From: Balamuthia mandrillaris | Lineage: Eukaryota | Assembly: GCA_031835245.2 (NCBI GenBank) | Contig: JAVKOQ020000031.1 | Span: forward strand, 248,001 to 305,360 | Direction: 5' to 3' | DNA length: 57,360 bases | Part shown: positions 10,023-47,017 of the stretch, piece after piece | Layout of the letters: each line of letters begins with the position of its first letter | Position numbering within the stretch: position 1 is the first letter of the stretch | Notes under the pieces: generated by a model | Told to the model about the DNA's origin: nothing | Database searches by the model: none | What the model saw: the letters and a program-made list of their open reading frames with translations, nothing else | Position numbers and translations under genes: made by a program

Positions 10023-10350
10023 TTCTCTTTTTTTCTGTTTCCGATCTTCCCCGACCACGTCGTCACGAAACCACTCTGGATAACAGAAACGAGCCGAATA
10101 CGTTATCTAAGTTGCCTTATGTAAGAGCGAAAATAAGGTTGGACAATTTTTTGACACAGGGCAGACACCTCAAGGTTAAGAGAAAAAGAAACACCTGTGT
10201 TCCCTTCGTGACGACGTGAATATTAGAAACAAAAAGAAAAAAAAAAGGAGAAAAGAAAAAGAGTTTGTTTGCAGCCGATGAGCCGCTACTCCGAACAGCG
10301 GTAACTTTAGAGAACAGCGGAGGGGGAGGAGGGAAAATACATAATACGAG

Positions 10351-13300
10351 ATGATGCGTATCCGAATGCTGCCCATGAGGGCAATGGAGCAGAATCCCTG
10401 CCTTCCGCGGATCTTTTCAAGATTAACCCGCCGGCACCTCCCCGCAGCCACCCCTGCTACTGCTACCACCATGTCCACGGCCTTCTCCCTCCCTCCTCAT
10501 CGACGCAACTACTACTTGGCGACTCCGTTTCGCAGGCAGCAAAGGGCTGCCACAGGGAGCGGAGGAAGCGCACAGGCGGCGGAGGGGTTGCAAACGGACA
10601 ACAACAAGAAGAGGAGGAGAGAGTATTCACAGCAGCTGCAGGCGCTGGCGCAAGAAGGGGGCCGCCTTCAAGGAAGAGCGCTCCTTACCACGTTGCAGGA
10701 GATGGAAAGGTTGGAGGTGATGGCGGAGGAGAAGGCCTACATGGAGCTGCTGAAGCGCTGCGGGAAGGAGAGGGCGCTGGAGGCGAGCCAACGCGTGCAC
10801 GCGCACCTCCTCTCCTTCCTCTCTGCCTCTCGCCCGGTGCTTTGCTCTCGCCTCTCTACCTGCCTGATCAGCGCCTATGGCAACTGCGGCAGGGTGGACT
10901 ACGCCCGTGAGGTGTTTGAGCAAATGGGGGAGCACGACGCGGTGGCATGGAACGCGATGATACAAGCCTTCACGCAGTGCGGACATGGGAAGGAGGCGGT
11001 GGAAGTTTTCCAGCGGATGCAGCGGGCAGGCGTGACGCCAAACCTCTTTACCTACACCAATGTCCTCAAGGCGTGCGCAAGTGCGAAGGATTTGGAGACG
11101 GGGAAGCAGGTGCATGCTAAGCTTATTCGTGGTGGGTTCCCACAGGACGCCGTCCTGTCAACTACTCTCATCCGCATGTACAGCCAGTGCGGAAGGATGG
11201 ATGAGGCTCGCGCCATCTTCCAGGGAATGAAGAACCGTGACGCATATACGTGGAACTCCATGATCGCGGAGGAAGCGCAGTCTGGGCGCGGAAAGAAAGC
11301 CCTTGAGGTCTTTCAACAAATGCAGCAGGCAGGCGTGCCGCCTGACTCGTTTACCTACACTAGTGCACTCAAGGCATGCGCAGTAGCTGAGGATTTGGAG
11401 ATGGGGAAGCACGCGCATGCTCAGCTCCTTCAGCGTGGCCCCTTAAGCATCCCTAATTCGAACGCCCTGATCAGCATGTATGGCAAGTGTGGACGGATGG
11501 AAGAAGCACGTGCCGTATTCTCGGGAATGAAGCAGCGAGACACGGTGACCTGGAGTTCTATTATCACGGAGGAGACGCGTCATGGGCACGCGAAGGAGGC
11601 ACTGGAGCTGTTCGGCCAGATGGAACAGGCAGGAGTGTCACCGGACCCCTTTACTTTCACCAGTGTACTCAAGGCTTGTGGGAGCATTGCAGACTTGGAG
11701 ACGGGTAAACGTGTGCACGCACAGCTTCTCCGCCGTGGCTTACTTCCCAACGTCCGTCTGTCAACCGCCCTGATCAGCATGTATGGCAAGTGCGGAAGGA
11801 TGGACAAGGCACGCGCAGTGTTCCAGCGAATGAAGCGACGAGATGTGGTGGCGTGGAACTCGATGATTGCGGAGGAAATACAATGTGGTCATGCAAAGGA
11901 AGCCCTTCTGCTCTTTCAACAAATGCAACAGGCGCGTGTGCCACCCGACTCCTTGACCTACACAAGTGTCCTCCAGGCGTGCGCAACAACTAAGAACTTG
12001 GAGCTAGGCAAACGAGTGCACGCTCAGTTCCTCCGCCGTGGCTCCTTGTCCCTCTCCGAGTCAAATGCCCTAATTAACATGTACGGCAAGTGCGGGAGGA
12101 TTGATGAGGCAGGCGCTGTATTCAAGGCGATGAAGAAGCGCAACGTGGCATCGTGGACTGCCATGATCCAAGCCTGCACGCAGTGTGGTCATGAGAAAGA
12201 AGCCCTTGAGTTGCTCCAGCAAATGCAACAGGCAGGCATGCAACCAGACCCACCGATCTACGCCATTATATTAAAGGCATGTGGAAGCATGAAAGACTTA
12301 GAGACAGGCAAGCAAGTGCATGCTCAACTCCTTCACCAAGGCCTCCTACCGGATGTTATGTTATCTACCGCCTTGATCAGCATGTATGGCAAGTGTGGGA
12401 GGATTGATGAGGCACGTGCTGTATTCACCGCGATGAAGGAGCGCAACGTGGTGACGTGGACCTCGATGATTGTGGCAGAAATACAGTGCGGAAATGGAAA
12501 GGAGGCACTGGAGCTCTTCCAACAGATGCAACAGGCAGGAGTGTCTCCAAACTCCTTTACCTACACCAGTGTACTCAAGGCTTGTGGGAGCATTGCAGAC
12601 TTGGAGACGGGCAAACAGGTGCATGCACAGCTCCTCCATCATGGCTCCTTGAACCTTCCTGAGTCAAATGCCCTGATCAACATGTACGGCAAATGTGGAC
12701 AGGTTGGCGACGCACGCGCTGTGTTCCTGGGAATGAAGCAACGGAACGTGTTGACATGGACCTCTATGGTAGCGGTGCATGGTATGCATGGACAAGGCAG
12801 AGAAGCACTGGCTGCATTTGAAGAAATGCAACAGCAAGGTCTGCAGCCAAATGACATCACCTTTATCAACGTTCTCAATGCATGCAGCCACACTGGGCTA
12901 GTAGAGGAAGGCCTTGCCTGTTTTGCTGCCATGAAAGAGAAGCATGGTATACAGCCCACAGTGGACCATTACAATTGTGTGGTGGACATGTTGGGTCGAG
13001 CAGGAAGACTGGACGAGGCGGAGGCACTGATCGACACAATGGTGGAGGTGCCTCCCGATGCGGTGACGTGGATGGCCTTGCTGGGGGCATGCGGCAGGCT
13101 CAAAGATGTGGAGCGAGCACAACGAGCAGCAGAGCGGGCTGTAGAGTTGGGTGCACAGGATGCTTCTCCGTTTGTGATTCTGTCCAACATCTACGCAGCA
13201 GCGGGGCGAGAGGAGGATGCGAAGAGAGTTCAGAACAAGATGGCAGAATGTGGTGTGAAATCGGAGGCAGGCAGGAGCTGGATAACGGTGAACGGCCAGA

Positions 13301-13677
13301 TGCACAGCTTCCTGGCCAGGGACCGCAGTCATCCCCGTAGCAAGGAGATCTACAAGGAGTTGGCCAGGCTGAACCAACGGATAAAGGCAGCGGGTTACAA
13401 GCCAGACACAGACTGGACGCTGCCTGCCGCATCGAAGGAGCCAAAGGAAATGGGGTTGGCTCACCACAGCGACAACTTGGCTGTTGCTTTTGGGCTGCTC
13501 GCCACGCCACCCGGCGAGCCACTGCGCATCATCACGACCCTTTGGCTATCCGGAGACAGCCACACGGCCGCCAAGTATATCGCCAAGGTGACGCAGCGAG
13601 AGATCTTGGTAAGGGACGTCAATCGCTTTCACCACTTTAGCCCCAATCTCACCTGCTCCTGTGGCGATCGCTGGTGA
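10351..13677 (+). CDS. PLS-class pentatricopeptide repeat protein with E1-E2-DYW extension (ends DRW), degenerate deaminase site, probable mitochondrial presequence; intronless
   Basis: 1108-aa uninterrupted ORF with about 23 PPR motifs (L,S,[PLS]x6,P2L2S2), E1 (AVTWMALLGAC), E2 (FVILSNIYAAAG), PG-box-like GRSWI, SHPRSKEIY, AGYKPDT, REILVRDVNRFHHF and CSCGDRW. Arg/Ser/Thr-rich, acid-poor N-terminus. True start may be one of several Met codons at 10351-10471. Confidence 0.97.
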   Translation: MMRIRMLPMRAMEQNPCLPRIFSRLTRRHLPAATPATATTMSTAFSLPPHRRNYYLATPFRRQQRAATGSGGSAQAAEGLQTDNNKKRRREYSQQLQALAQEGGRLQGRALLTTLQEMERLEVMAEEKAYMELLKRCGKERALEASQRVHAHLLSFLSASRPVLCSRLSTCLISAYGNCGRVDYAREVFEQMGEHDAVAWNAMIQAFTQCGHGKEAVEVFQRMQRAGVTPNLFTYTNVLKACASAKDLETGKQVHAKLIRGGFPQDAVLSTTLIRMYSQCGRMDEARAIFQGMKNRDAYTWNSMIAEEAQSGRGKKALEVFQQMQQAGVPPDSFTYTSALKACAVAEDLEMGKHAHAQLLQRGPLSIPNSNALISMYGKCGRMEEARAVFSGMKQRDTVTWSSIITEETRHGHAKEALELFGQMEQAGVSPDPFTFTSVLKACGSIADLETGKRVHAQLLRRGLLPNVRLSTALISMYGKCGRMDKARAVFQRMKRRDVVAWNSMIAEEIQCGHAKEALLLFQQMQQARVPPDSLTYTSVLQACATTKNLELGKRVHAQFLRRGSLSLSESNALINMYGKCGRIDEAGAVFKAMKKRNVASWTAMIQACTQCGHEKEALELLQQMQQAGMQPDPPIYAIILKACGSMKDLETGKQVHAQLLHQGLLPDVMLSTALISMYGKCGRIDEARAVFTAMKERNVVTWTSMIVAEIQCGNGKEALELFQQMQQAGVSPNSFTYTSVLKACGSIADLETGKQVHAQLLHHGSLNLPESNALINMYGKCGQVGDARAVFLGMKQRNVLTWTSMVAVHGMHGQGREALAAFEEMQQQGLQPNDITFINVLNACSHTGLVEEGLACFAAMKEKHGIQPTVDHYNCVVDMLGRAGRLDEAEALIDTMVEVPPDAVTWMALLGACGRLKDVERAQRAAERAVELGAQDASPFVILSNIYAAAGREEDAKRVQNKMAECGVKSEAGRSWITVNGQMHSFLARDRSHPRSKEIYKELARLNQRIKAAGYKPDTDWTLPAASKEPKEMGLAHHSDNLAVAFGLLATPPGEPLRIITTLWLSGDSHTAAKYIAKVTQREILVRDVNRFHHFSPNLTCSCGDRW

Positions 13678-13878
13678 GAAGCATGTCATATAGAGTACGT
13701 GTAATATCCTCTTCCTTTATGCAAAAAAAAAAAAATAACGGTAAATAAAATAGGCGCCGCCGCCGTAGTAAATAAAAATAAAACCTATAGTAACATTGTT
13801 CGTCACAAAACACAAAAACAAAAACAAAAAGCAAAAGCAAAAAAACAAAATAAAAATATAAAACATAGAAAATGAAGG

Positions 13879-13905
13879 TTAGGGTTTTAGGTTAGGGTTA
13901 GGGTT
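13879..13905 (+). repeat. Short interstitial telomere-type (TTAGGG)n tract
   Basis: TTAGGG TTTTAGG TTAGGG TTAGGG TT read directly. Confidence 0.75.
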
Positions 13906-37775: not shown

Positions 37776-38639
37776 ATGGAGGCACCAAGAAGAGAAGAGG
37801 GGGAGGCCTCCAGCAGCAGCAGCGGCGCTGCTTCCTCACTGGACCTGCCCTACGAGCTCACTCTCAAGATCGTGGAGTACTGCGATGCTCAGCACCGCAG
37901 GGGCAAGACGCAACAAAAACCAGGCTCCACGGCCGGCCGTTTTGACGCCCTCAAGACCTTGCGCCTGGTCAACAAGCAGTTCAACCAGCTGGCCACGGAC
38001 CTCCTCGTCAAGGACTATGTGGCCGCCTTGGAGACGCAGCTGCAGCACCTCACCGCCGTCCTCTCCTCCAAATGGGAGGAAGGGCAACCCAACGAGCGTC
38101 AGGCCAGCATGTTGGCCGCCTGCTTCGAGGCCCTGAGCAAGGCCGGCGAGGAGCTCAAGTTCCTCCAAAGAAAGCTGCAGGAAAAGATGGAGGCCCGCAG
38201 GGCCATCTACCGCATGCCCAACGTGGACGACGGCACCCGCATGCAGCTCCTCAAGGCCTGCTACTTTGACGCCGAGCTGCTGGGCCTGCGCAACGTGGCC
38301 GAGAGCCTCCACAAGGAAAAAGAGCAGCTGGAGCCGAGCAAGCGGAGAAGAGAGGAGGACTGGAGGGGAGGTCCCCTTCGTGTGGACGACCCCTACCGCC
38401 ACCGAAGACCCCCTCCGTTTCCCAGAGGGCCAGGTTTTCCCGCCCCTCCTCCCATCTTCGGCGAACCGGACCCGGACCACATGGAGCCGCCCGACTGGGA
38501 GAGGGACAGGAACCCAGCGCCCTTCCCGGCGGGTCCCATGGGCCCTTCCTCTCCCTTTGGCTATGACCCTACCGCTCCTGGTCCCTTCAACCCACGTCCT
38601 CCTGGTCCGGGCGGCGGCATGGGTCCTCGTTGGATTTAG
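37776..38639 (+). CDS. Intronless F-box-like protein with proline-rich tail containing a PI31-like EPDPDH motif
   Basis: SLDLPYELTLKIVEYC...LKTLRLVNKQFNQLA (F-box with insertion), helical middle, tail PPPIFGEPDPDHMEPP..GYDP..PGPFNP. GC-rich codons. Confidence 0.7.
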   Translation: MEAPRREEGEASSSSSGAASSLDLPYELTLKIVEYCDAQHRRGKTQQKPGSTAGRFDALKTLRLVNKQFNQLATDLLVKDYVAALETQLQHLTAVLSSKWEEGQPNERQASMLAACFEALSKAGEELKFLQRKLQEKMEARRAIYRMPNVDDGTRMQLLKACYFDAELLGLRNVAESLHKEKEQLEPSKRRREEDWRGGPLRVDDPYRHRRPPPFPRGPGFPAPPPIFGEPDPDHMEPPDWERDRNPAPFPAGPMGPSSPFGYDPTAPGPFNPRPPGPGGGMGPRWI

Positions 38640-44411: not shown

Positions 44412-47017
44412 TCACGGAACTTGCTGAGGCCGTTCTTTCTGCAGCTTATCCTCCAGCTGTAGAGTGGGGTCGCCGGAGCTACCATAGAAGGCATACCTCC
44501 ACCTCTTTTTGGTTTTTGCCCAACACATCGGCCGCCCAAAGAAGAAAACGAGCAGCTCAACTTCCTTATGCTTCTCCTTCCCCTCCACCACTGCCTTATA
44601 CTTCTCCTCCCCCTCCTCCTTTCTTCTCCTTTCCGCTTCCTTTAGGTAGATATCCAGCATGGCTATCGCCAGGCCAGAGTCGTCCTCCAAAAGCTTGAAA
44701 ACTTCTTCTTTGTCGTTGACGTCACGTACGGTCTCAAAAAAGTGGCGCAATAGCTTCCATACCCCTATCAACAAGTGCGTGAGCGTGACAGAAATAAACA
44801 AGCCACATCAAAAAACATACCGTTAGTGTCCCGTTGGTGATTCTTCAGGCGGGTGAGGTATGCAGCGGCATCTGAAAGCCGCGTCGAATTCTCTATGAAC
44901 TTGTCCCCTTTACAAATTGGGGGTCGTCCAGGCCTAAAGACATTGAACAAATCAAGGAATATCTCCTCATCCTGTCTGCGGTTTCACAAAAGATTGCCAT
45001 GAAAAAAATATATTGTTTGGTGCAAATAAAGCTCCAAGAAGGCTACTGCCAAACATGCCAAGTCTGCTTTCTGGCAGAGCACTGCCTGTGCTGCTCTGCA
45101 TTGCTGGCAACCAAGCGTAGATTGTGTTTCCACCCAAGATAGGCAGTTCTCATTTCCTCATACAATCTGGCTCCACGTTTCCCAGGTCGGTAGCCTTCCT
45201 CTAGCAACCAACGGACATACGCCCTTGAAGGTCGCGGCCCCATCCACCCAACGTGCTTGAAGTAGGATTGAATGCTCTCTGTAGAGGGGCAATAATAGGC
45301 ATGCAGTATCGCCTTCAGTTTGGCTACATAAGAATCGTGACGCTCCTGGAAATAGAGCTTCTTAAGCTGGGAGTTAAAGGGGTTATCACATGGGTTTACA
45401 AATGCCCCGCCTGTAGCTGGGAAGGAACAGGTTGAAGCTCCCATCTCCATGAAGAAATCTTGAACCGAGTGTGCAGTGTACTCAGGTCCACGGTCATGGA
45501 CCACCAACGGATTGTCATTCAGGTAGTCCCCTACCAAGTCCAACCACCGCAACGTTAGATCCGCTGAAGGTGCTGAGAGGCCAGGAATGTAGACCACTTT
45601 TCCATCCCCTCCAACGTCAACATCCTTGGGCACAGTAGGGCAGTTGGTGAATATGACAGGAGGAAGCACCTCCCTGCTCATGACCAATCCTTCATATAAG
45701 ATCGTTTTGTAGTCAAACCTGTTTTCCCAGAGTGAGGGCTGGCCACTGTTGGGATGGTGTTTAAAAGTTACACAGAGATCCCGTGAGAATTAGATTGGAG
45801 CATTACAGGTGCATTACCATGGCAAAATAATCTAAAACCGGGGCTACATACCTTCCCTGTGGAGCATATGTCCTGAGGATGTACTCAGGGTGTGTGAATC
45901 GTACAGTGTCCACAGCAACTACGCGGGTGGGATCTCCAAGCTCATCAATCTGGTTTCATAAACCCTTCAAAAATCAATAGAGCTCTTGTGGAAGTTGAGG
46001 TCTTGCATACTTGGAGGGCTTGTTGGCAGCTTGATGAGAGGACAGGTGTAAAGCTTTCATGTGGGTAGATACCCAACCAATACTGACATCCTCCTGAAAG
46101 CTAGCAGCGATGAACTTTTGGATGGCTTTGATGGAAGTCTGCTTGTGGGCCTTCACACAAGAAAGAACCCAACCTCCGACCACCAACTGCTCTTGACGTG
46201 AGAGTTTTGGAGGACGGCCACGGGGTGGAAGGACAGCAGGGTCCCAAGGAGGTGCAGCTTCTTGCCTTTTCCTGCGATAAACAGTGGAAGCATCTGGAGT
46301 GTCTGCATTCTTGCAGAAGGCATAGGGTGTTGGCTTTTTTTTTTGTTTACGTTTTTTCCTCACCTCAGTTTGAGCAAGGCAGAGTTTCTTGGTGTCTTCA
46401 GAATAGTTATGGCGAGGCCTCTTCCTGCTTGCCATTGTTTTGCTCCTTCTACTTTTTTTCTTTCCTCCTGACTCAACAGTTCACCTGGCCAATCAGTGGA
46501 AAATCGTGGGAAACTTTTCTAAAACCGCAGTGTAGGATAAAGAGAATTAAAACCAAATAGGCTGCTGTAGTGTGGAGTGAATAGCGCTTACTAGTAAGGC
46601 TTGGGAGAGCTTTCTGATGGCCAAGCTTTGGCGCTGGAGATCGCTTCCATCTTTGTTTTTTCCCTCTGCACAAGGACAAAAATTTTTTCGAGCCTGGCAA
46701 AGCCTAGCAAGCCCAGACAGGCCGTGCACGACGAAGCAAGGAGCAAAGTCTCTCCCATACTTATCAGCAATGTCCTTCCTGTAAAGAAAATGATTCAAGA
46801 TTTAGGAAGAGCAGCGTTTAGGGTTATTATTATTTTGTTTTTTTTTTTTTTTTGGGGGGGGGGGATATAACTACCGAACTTGGCGTTCCACCAAGCCACC
46901 AATCTCTTTTTTGAGGTCTTCTTTGGTACTGCGTACCTCCGCCTGGATGCTCGCCTGAATACTCGCCATTTGTGTCCGCAGCTCCACAAACAACTTATCT
47001 ATGTAGTTATAGTCCAT
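44412..47017 (-). CDS. Hypothetical 4-exon gene whose second intron contains the transposon (exons 47017-46875, 46778-46592, 44971-about 44821, about 44764-44412)
   Basis: Phase-compatible splicing gives MDYNYIDKLFVELRTQMASIQASIQAEVRSTKEDLKKEIGGLVERQVR/KDIADKYGRDFAPCF...SQALL/DEEIFLDLFNVFRPG...RDTNG/VWKLLRHFFE...; 3' end uncertain and the gene may be truncated. Confidence 0.65.
44976..46530 (-). mobile_element. 1555-bp TIR DNA transposon (IS630/Tc1/mariner/pogo-type DD35D transposase) with 27-bp imperfect TIRs and 3-bp TGT/ACA target-site duplication
   Basis: Left end CTGCGGTTTCACAAAAGATTGCCATGA (44976-45002) versus reverse complement of right end CTGCGGTTTTAGAAAAGTTTCCCACGA (46504-46530): 22/27 identical, outer 9 perfect. 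TGT at 44973-44975 and 46531-46533. Confidence 0.85.
45043..46435 (-). pseudogene. Spliced DD35D transposase pseudogene (two in-frame TGA stops; intron 45851-45746)
   Basis: HTH-like DASTVYRRKR, GRPPKLS linker, second HTH (SIKAIQKFIAASFQEDVSIGWVSTHMK), then Y*FLKGL*NQ, VVAVD (D1), GTATGT..CAG intron in frame, LVVHDRG (D2), 35 residues, NPCD (D3). Confidence 0.8.

Follow-up and report, generated by a model that had tools for sequence, protein, structure and literature searches.

The 57,360-nt stretch of DNA analysed here (the window) comes from Balamuthia mandrillaris, a member of the Amoebozoa, and covers positions 248,001–305,360 of contig JAVKOQ020000031.1 (assembly GCA_031835245.2). On its forward strand lies an uninterrupted gene for a pentatricopeptide repeat (PPR) protein that ends in a DYW domain; we refer to this gene and its protein as the query. 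The order of its parts, PLS repeats ending in P2-L2-S2 and followed by E1, E2 and DYW, is that of PLS-class PPR-DYW proteins (Table 1). A reading made from the letters of the window alone (the sequence-only reading) had described a DYW domain with a precisely disarmed deaminase centre on an otherwise intact editing-factor scaffold. We compared the query with published structures, with its relatives and with public sequencing reads, and found that the centre is indeed altered and that the alterations reach well beyond it.

Table 1. Positions in the window of the query gene and its parts
Feature	Position	Strand	Basis or remark
Single open reading frame (ORF), PLS-E1-E2-DYW, 1108 amino acids (aa)	10351..13677	+	1108 codons open; Pfam matches to PPR, E, E+ and DYW; RNA depth
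N-terminal 60 aa, likely mitochondrial presequence (from composition)	10351..10530	+	Basic, nearly free of acidic residues
PPR array, S-(P-L-S)x6-P2-L2-S2, aa 166–903	10846..13059	+	Reading of motifs and code pairs
E1-E2 motifs, aa 904–971	13060..13263	+	RNA-backbone contacts changed
DYW domain, PG box to DRW	13264..13674	+	PF14432, E 1e-28; DYW fold predicted
Gating region (gate), most diverged segment	13414..13461	+	8/13 conserved positions changed
HSDN in place of HSEK	13465..13476	+	Zinc His kept; catalytic Glu to Asp; charge-compensating basic residue to Asn
TTLWLSGDSH in place of KNLRVCGDCH	13534..13563	+	Both catalytic-zinc Cys replaced by Ser; no equivalent of K915 or R918; Leu that stacks on the base retained
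Retained second (structural) zinc site and surface for PPR docking	13561..13674	+	Residue alignment with structures

The first 60 aa contain nine Arg or Lys, one Asp or Glu and ten Ser or Thr, and the N-termini of the relatives described below are broadly alike. Such a basic, acid-poor N-terminus suggests import into mitochondria. Among the 19 Balamuthia DYW proteins compared, no other is as long as the query, whose array is probably preceded directly by one more, degenerate L-like motif. As in the intact relatives, all 15 P- or S-type motifs carry canonical code pairs at the fifth and last positions, and dN/dS (the ratio of nonsynonymous to synonymous divergence) among the query's own repeats is 0.21, from 51 non-independent pairs. 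With the PPR code, which we presume to apply here, the 22 repeats yield a predicted target of about 22 nt, G-Y-n-G-U-n-U-G-n-G-U-n-Y-G-n-A-A-n-Y-A-n-U. Helix A of the P-type repeats often holds an acidic EE/AE stretch, in the query and in its relatives, and this is apparently a family trait.

To place the residues of the catalytic site we aligned the query with consPPR-DYW (9kfx), OTP86 (7o4e/7o4f) and DYW1 (7w86). D1041 (codon GAC, 13471–73) aligns with the catalytic Glu in all three, and S1067 (TCC, 13549–51) and S1070 (AGC, 13558–60) with the pair of zinc-binding Cys. The codon for the zinc His, 13465–67, is intact. The query thus has HxD..SxxS where active C-to-U editors have the HxE(x)nCxxC signature, and the three substitutions called by the sequence-only reading are borne out by both alignment and codon positions. 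That each codon is one nucleotide away from GAR or TGC is also true, and any mutation process would give this. The catalytic Glu is present in every one of 373 other full-length DYW domains, and in two of these one Cys is missing; this set (374 of 378 proteins passing a length filter, query included) was ranked by similarity and therefore favours intact domains. The chance that all three swaps would be to the mild residue is about 0.001–0.02 under simple models. In published assays, loss of E544 or its equivalent abolishes editing (PMC13324415, PMC7611903), and Glu-to-Asp itself is not among the variants assayed in the available text of either. Because substitutions of this Glu abolish editing and both zinc Cys are gone as well, we consider editing in cis by the query to be very unlikely.

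The rest of the fold gives a different picture. The ligands of the second zinc site (H1071, H1094, C1102 and C1104) are present, the protein ends in DRW and the 3.3-kb ORF is open, all as first read from the sequence. Also kept are the docking or structural residues K1075, R1088, R1092, F1093, H1095, D1106 and W1108. Structure prediction, one of the follow-ups that had been suggested for this domain, gave an AlphaFold model of the C-terminal 332 aa with a mean predicted local distance difference test (pLDDT) score of 94.9, the lowest internal blocks (79) lying in the gate. The model superimposes on 9kfx with a template modelling (TM) score of 0.91 and also matches 7o4e and 7w86. These data predict that the DYW fold, with its second zinc site, is retained.

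The closest relatives of the query are 12 proteins of Balamuthia mandrillaris itself, at 63–67% identity; one conifer protein was also among the top matches. Many matches were to CRR2, and these were not taken as kinship since their scores fell far below those of the Balamuthia proteins. Adding cluster members (8 proteins looked up) brought the Balamuthia relatives to 18, and scoring them for the HxE/CxxC state, as had been proposed, found the canonical HSEKLA..KNLRVCGDCH in 18/18; among these proteins the query alone is altered. A quick tree of the last 312 residues, with 19 Balamuthia rows and 31 chosen outgroups, places the query and its relatives in one clade with a Shimodaira–Hasegawa-like approximate likelihood ratio (SH-aLRT) support of 100. 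The query has the longest end branch in this clade, 0.33, about twice the next longest (0.16). With isoforms and near-duplicates merged there are about nine intact PLS-E1-E2-DYW lineages in Balamuthia (P0003–P0013, P0015, P0386–P0391). These comparisons place the origin of the query inside a Balamuthia-specific DYW family, and the intact members of that family predict plant-type C-to-U editing in Balamuthia mitochondria. U-to-C editors of the DYW:KP type retain the zinc ligands and have an altered C-terminal signature; the query has lost both Cys and sits inside the canonical Balamuthia clade, and is not of that type. No orthologue of the query was found among 49 metagenome loci (best segment 30–54% identity). 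One relative, P0004, has an intact catalytic motif and a replaced C-terminal CSC-DYW end, possibly through a frameshift or an annotation error.

The description "precisely disarmed, otherwise intact" does not hold. At DYW positions fixed in at least 11 of the 12 Balamuthia relatives the query is changed in 25 of 105, and it is changed in 9 of 44 columns that are invariant across the family, in addition to losing RNA contacts in E2. The changed residues include K1042N, K1062T, N1063T, R1065W, G1100L, Y1107R and eight positions of the gate. Conserved positions are changed at 5/59 in P2-L2-S2, 8/41 in E1-E2 and 5/35 from the PG box to the gate; for the gate itself the count is 8/13, for the catalytic core 8/26 and for the C-terminus 4/32. 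In the relatives there is at most one change in the gate and two in the core, and the excess of changes in gate and core over the rest of the DYW domain is significant (P=0.002). P2-L2-S2 is as conserved in the query as in its relatives, where 0–7 of about 60 positions are changed. A local frameshift was considered as the cause of the odd gate sequence and rejected by inspection; the gate segment aligns without gaps.

The residues concerned were assigned roles from two structure papers (PMC7611903, PMC13324415). By these, 10 of 18 residues for catalysis, regulation or the RNA path are changed, as against 1 of 16 for the fold or PPR-DYW docking (P=0.003, post hoc; the R568/R918 equivalent, which has both roles, was counted in the catalysis and RNA-path class). 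In E1-E2 the R418 equivalent is G915, with an Arg one place later, R464 corresponds to Q961 and K474 to S971, and the N449 equivalent is kept. In the gate, the H528 equivalent is P1025. Downstream of the edited base the RNA makes a U-turn that is held by R464, K474 and H528; each of the three is therefore changed, and the query does not carry the RNA-path and regulatory residues of active editors (K474, R464, H528, K915 and R918). The loss of the editing apparatus is thus broad, yet it is not random.

The sequence-only reading had also raised the possibility of a changed chemistry, for which we found no evidence; in such a case a His-Asp-Ser-Ser pocket with its base-stacking Leu would read a base, or cleave RNA, without a catalytic zinc. 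The base-contacting S543 and L567 equivalents are kept, the three catalytic swaps are all mild and there is a report that links DYW domains to RNase activity in vitro (PMC10318007). The reported RNase activity is, by the same account, sensitive to zinc chelators, and the query no longer has the residues that steer RNA to the pocket. Mild swaps would equally fit selection for a packed, buried core. The altered state occurs in a single gene and no conserved alternative motif is seen in any relative. By hand count, 10 of the 13 single-step amino-acid changes in gate and core (13414–13560) can only be transversions (A to C in five cases), as compared with 4 transversions among 26 strain variants; the excess would favour a changed chemistry, in a comparison to which no nonsynonymous null was applied. 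We give this idea a slim chance.

The query is transcribed. RNA depth was seen in 15, 13 and 6 of 15 bins of the ORF in three raw-read runs (15/15 in run X17), and three flanking intergenic bins had none in the same runs. No splice joint is listed inside the ORF; neighbouring genes show spliced joints in these data. In a fourth run, the type of which we guessed, contigs span 10783–13272. These reads also bear on whether the altered motif could be an assembly error or an allele private to the strain. Such an error or allele would fit with a protein cluster of one member, the query, and with the fact that none of the runs gave a base-by-base reading of the three codons. An artefact is nonetheless hard to reconcile with 25 in-frame substitutions clustered at functional sites, which is unlike sequencing error, and with RNA reads from another study that cover the bin 13420–13640 at a depth of about 1 and at least 93% identity. 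Possible source runs also hold 0.97–0.98 of sampled words, a figure that is not independent of the assembly; gate and core make up about 5% of the sampled stretch. The chance of an error or a private allele is slighter still than that of a changed chemistry.

Strain variation points to constraint on the upstream part of the gene. Of the variants listed (40 of 51 for the whole stretch), 26 lie in the query ORF, 19 synonymous and 7 nonsynonymous, which gives a ratio of nonsynonymous to synonymous polymorphism (pN/pS) of 0.11–0.17 (P at most 2e-5). Expression together with purifying selection, as in degenerate-DYW RNA binders, is thus seen, at low depth and for the part upstream of the DYW domain. 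This has to be weighed against slow decay of a redundant editor, in which the target C became T in the mitochondrial genome, the constraint on catalysis lapsed and the gene is heading for loss under weak selection against misfolding. Stepwise degeneration of DYW after loss of the target is common for DOT4 (PMC6424221). Changes in the query extend to E1-E2 and the PG box, 19 of the 25 DYW changes need one nucleotide and the end branch is the longest in the clade, all of which fit decay. On the other hand, variants in presequence and PPR array are strongly synonymous and code residues are intact in 15/15 motifs. Six of the DYW changes need at least two nucleotides and, with 8/13 gate positions changed, point to a long period, over which P2-L2-S2 has stayed at the level of conservation seen in the relatives and no stop or frameshift has arisen. 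We regard slow decay as unlikely, if credible.

The query could instead be a specificity factor that still marks a C for editing, while an intact DYW paralogue provides the deaminase in trans. In plants, E and E+ factors are completed by DYW1 or DYW2, which serve as the model for this idea. Intact paralogues exist, the PPR code of the query is intact and a route has been described by which a DYW domain degenerates and is supplemented in trans (PMC6424221). The docking surface for the query's own DYW is largely kept, and this domain would likely occupy the place of a partner's. Contacts of E2 with RNA around the edit site are lost. E/E+ factors completed in trans have a truncated or absent DYW and a partner DYW protein; the DYW of the query is full length, and no short DYW1- or DYW2-like Balamuthia protein was seen among the matches listed, a weak negative. 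Recruitment in trans, one of two roles put forward in the sequence-only reading, is possible in principle and, in our judgement, decidedly improbable; the other role, a sequence-specific RNA binder, is the one that we favour.

Together, these data suggest that the query probably once edited and has been retained as a sequence-specific binder of mitochondrial RNA that does not edit, with a DYW cap that is folded and inert. Loss of the catalytic motif with retention of PPR array and code is the combination found in degenerate-DYW RNA binders. Once imported into mitochondria, the protein would read about 22 nt of RNA with its 22 repeats. The DYW domain would stay folded around the second zinc and docked on P2-L2-S2, and RNA 3' of the repeats would be neither clamped nor deaminated. 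The bound protein may then protect an RNA end, guide processing or remodel RNA structure. Splicing is a weaker candidate because mitochondrial introns of Balamuthia vary between strains, one of which has none in cox1 or 23S rRNA. Of the earlier suggestion of a selected pseudo-enzyme rather than random decay, transcription, the mostly synonymous variants, the intact code and the clustering of the DYW changes speak in favour; a surgical disarming of three residues is not supported.

Several points weigh against this interpretation. The choice of residue classes and regions was made with the alignment already in view, and the 12 relatives include near-duplicates and isoforms of about nine lineages, so that "fixed in 12" overstates independence. 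The query has no equivalent of R568, a docking residue, and there is some erosion of E1-E2 too. The confidence of an AlphaFold model depends on its alignment and is not proof of folding. RNA depth is only 1–4, from 3–5% of each run. None of the 26 listed variants is inside the DYW domain, and the figures on selection thus concern the part upstream of it. Five variants at 12745–12834 occur at mixed frequency, and the three amino-acid changes among them agree with residues of paralogues; this cluster may be a second allele or cross-mapping, and without it the ratio of synonymous to nonsynonymous variants is 17:4. Finally, no orthologue in another species was seen among the matches listed (120 of 1174, a further 120, 7, and the best 150 of 2434).

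A bolder reading would join an undescribed plant-type C-to-U system in Balamuthia mitochondria, with about nine or more DYW editors, to the active reshaping of one member into a zinc-free reader or RNA-processing factor that grips a base by its His-Asp-Ser-Ser pocket, and hence to a DYW pseudo-enzyme that arose independently of the plant lineage. We think this rather improbable.

Elsewhere in the window, a perfect 14-nt inverted repeat (10056–10069 and 10205–10218, 135 nt apart) lies between the PPR gene and the head-to-head gene upstream, and the two genes may share it as a promoter motif. Past the PPR gene, and before the one that follows, there is a short telomere-like TTAGGG cluster (13876–13905), which holds three of the five matches to TTAGGGTT in the window. 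Fragments of a long terminal repeat (LTR) retrotransposon, with RVT_2 and weak retroviral SH3-like matches, are found at 23–1523. Two ORFs at 45043–46435 (−) have no Pfam match and by eye resemble a Tc1/IS630-type transposase, and an ORF at 37776–38639 has weak F-box-like matches under the curated cut-off.

In the literature searched, which covered few subscription papers, Balamuthia DYW or pentatricopeptide proteins were not found described, and a search for a PPR-DYW pseudoenzyme gave no match. C-to-U editing in Balamuthia mitochondria was likewise not found described in that literature, supplements aside, and the word "editing" is absent from the available main text of two papers on Balamuthia mitochondrial genomes (PMC4665321, PMC10196457). 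The available text of PMC11946409 and PMC10318007 holds no case of a degenerate protist DYW; a 2013 survey of protist DYW proteins may describe some. Lineage-specific expansions of DYW-PPR proteins outside land plants are reported for Naegleria, Acrasis, Physarum and Acanthamoeba (PMC4202320, PMC4758236), and the Balamuthia family resembles them in this. The DYW domains of Physarum and Naegleria are reported to keep their zinc ligands (PMC4758236), whereas in the Balamuthia family the PLS triplets are plant-like and one member is degenerate.

The query shares its domain order, predicted fold, second zinc site and most docking residues with the canonical editors consPPR-DYW, OTP86 and DYW1, and differs from them at the catalytic Glu, both zinc Cys, the K915, R895 and R918 equivalents, the gate and the contacts of the RNA U-turn. 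It is also a natural map of which DYW residues are for catalysis and which for the fold, one that agrees with structures of 2021 and 2026. Arabidopsis CRR2 is a DYW-PPR protein that acts in RNA cleavage or processing, a role other than editing (PMC9459714); HxE..CxxC, which the query lacks, is missing from no more than 2 rows of the CRR2 orthologues that we collected. The state of the query is less surprising than first thought because degenerate DYW domains on retained PPR arrays have been described in plants. PpPPR_43 of Physcomitrium, like the query a long PLS-E1-E2-DYW protein with degenerate zinc-binding motifs, is mitochondrial and has a non-editing role, splicing a group II intron of cox1 (PMC9459714, PMC6424221). 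Balamuthia mitochondria, by contrast, have only strain-variable LAGLIDADG introns (PMC4665321), and one strain has no introns in cox1 or 23S rRNA (PMC4665321, PMC10196457). DOT4 orthologues of Poaceae have, like the query, kept a long PPR array with canonical code residues and lost the catalytic Glu (HSE to HSS); the array was extended, and a shift to RNA binding without editing has been proposed (PMC6424221). DOT4 belongs to plant chloroplasts and its ancestral target is known; the query comes from an amoebozoan, arose independently and also lacks both zinc Cys. Its kind is thus already known from plants, and what is new is an independently arisen, likely non-editing DYW-PPR protein in an amoeba. 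The wider lead is the intact Balamuthia DYW family and the mitochondrial editing that it predicts. If our interpretation is correct, an amoeba has independently followed the route from editor to non-editing RNA binder that is already documented for grasses and moss.

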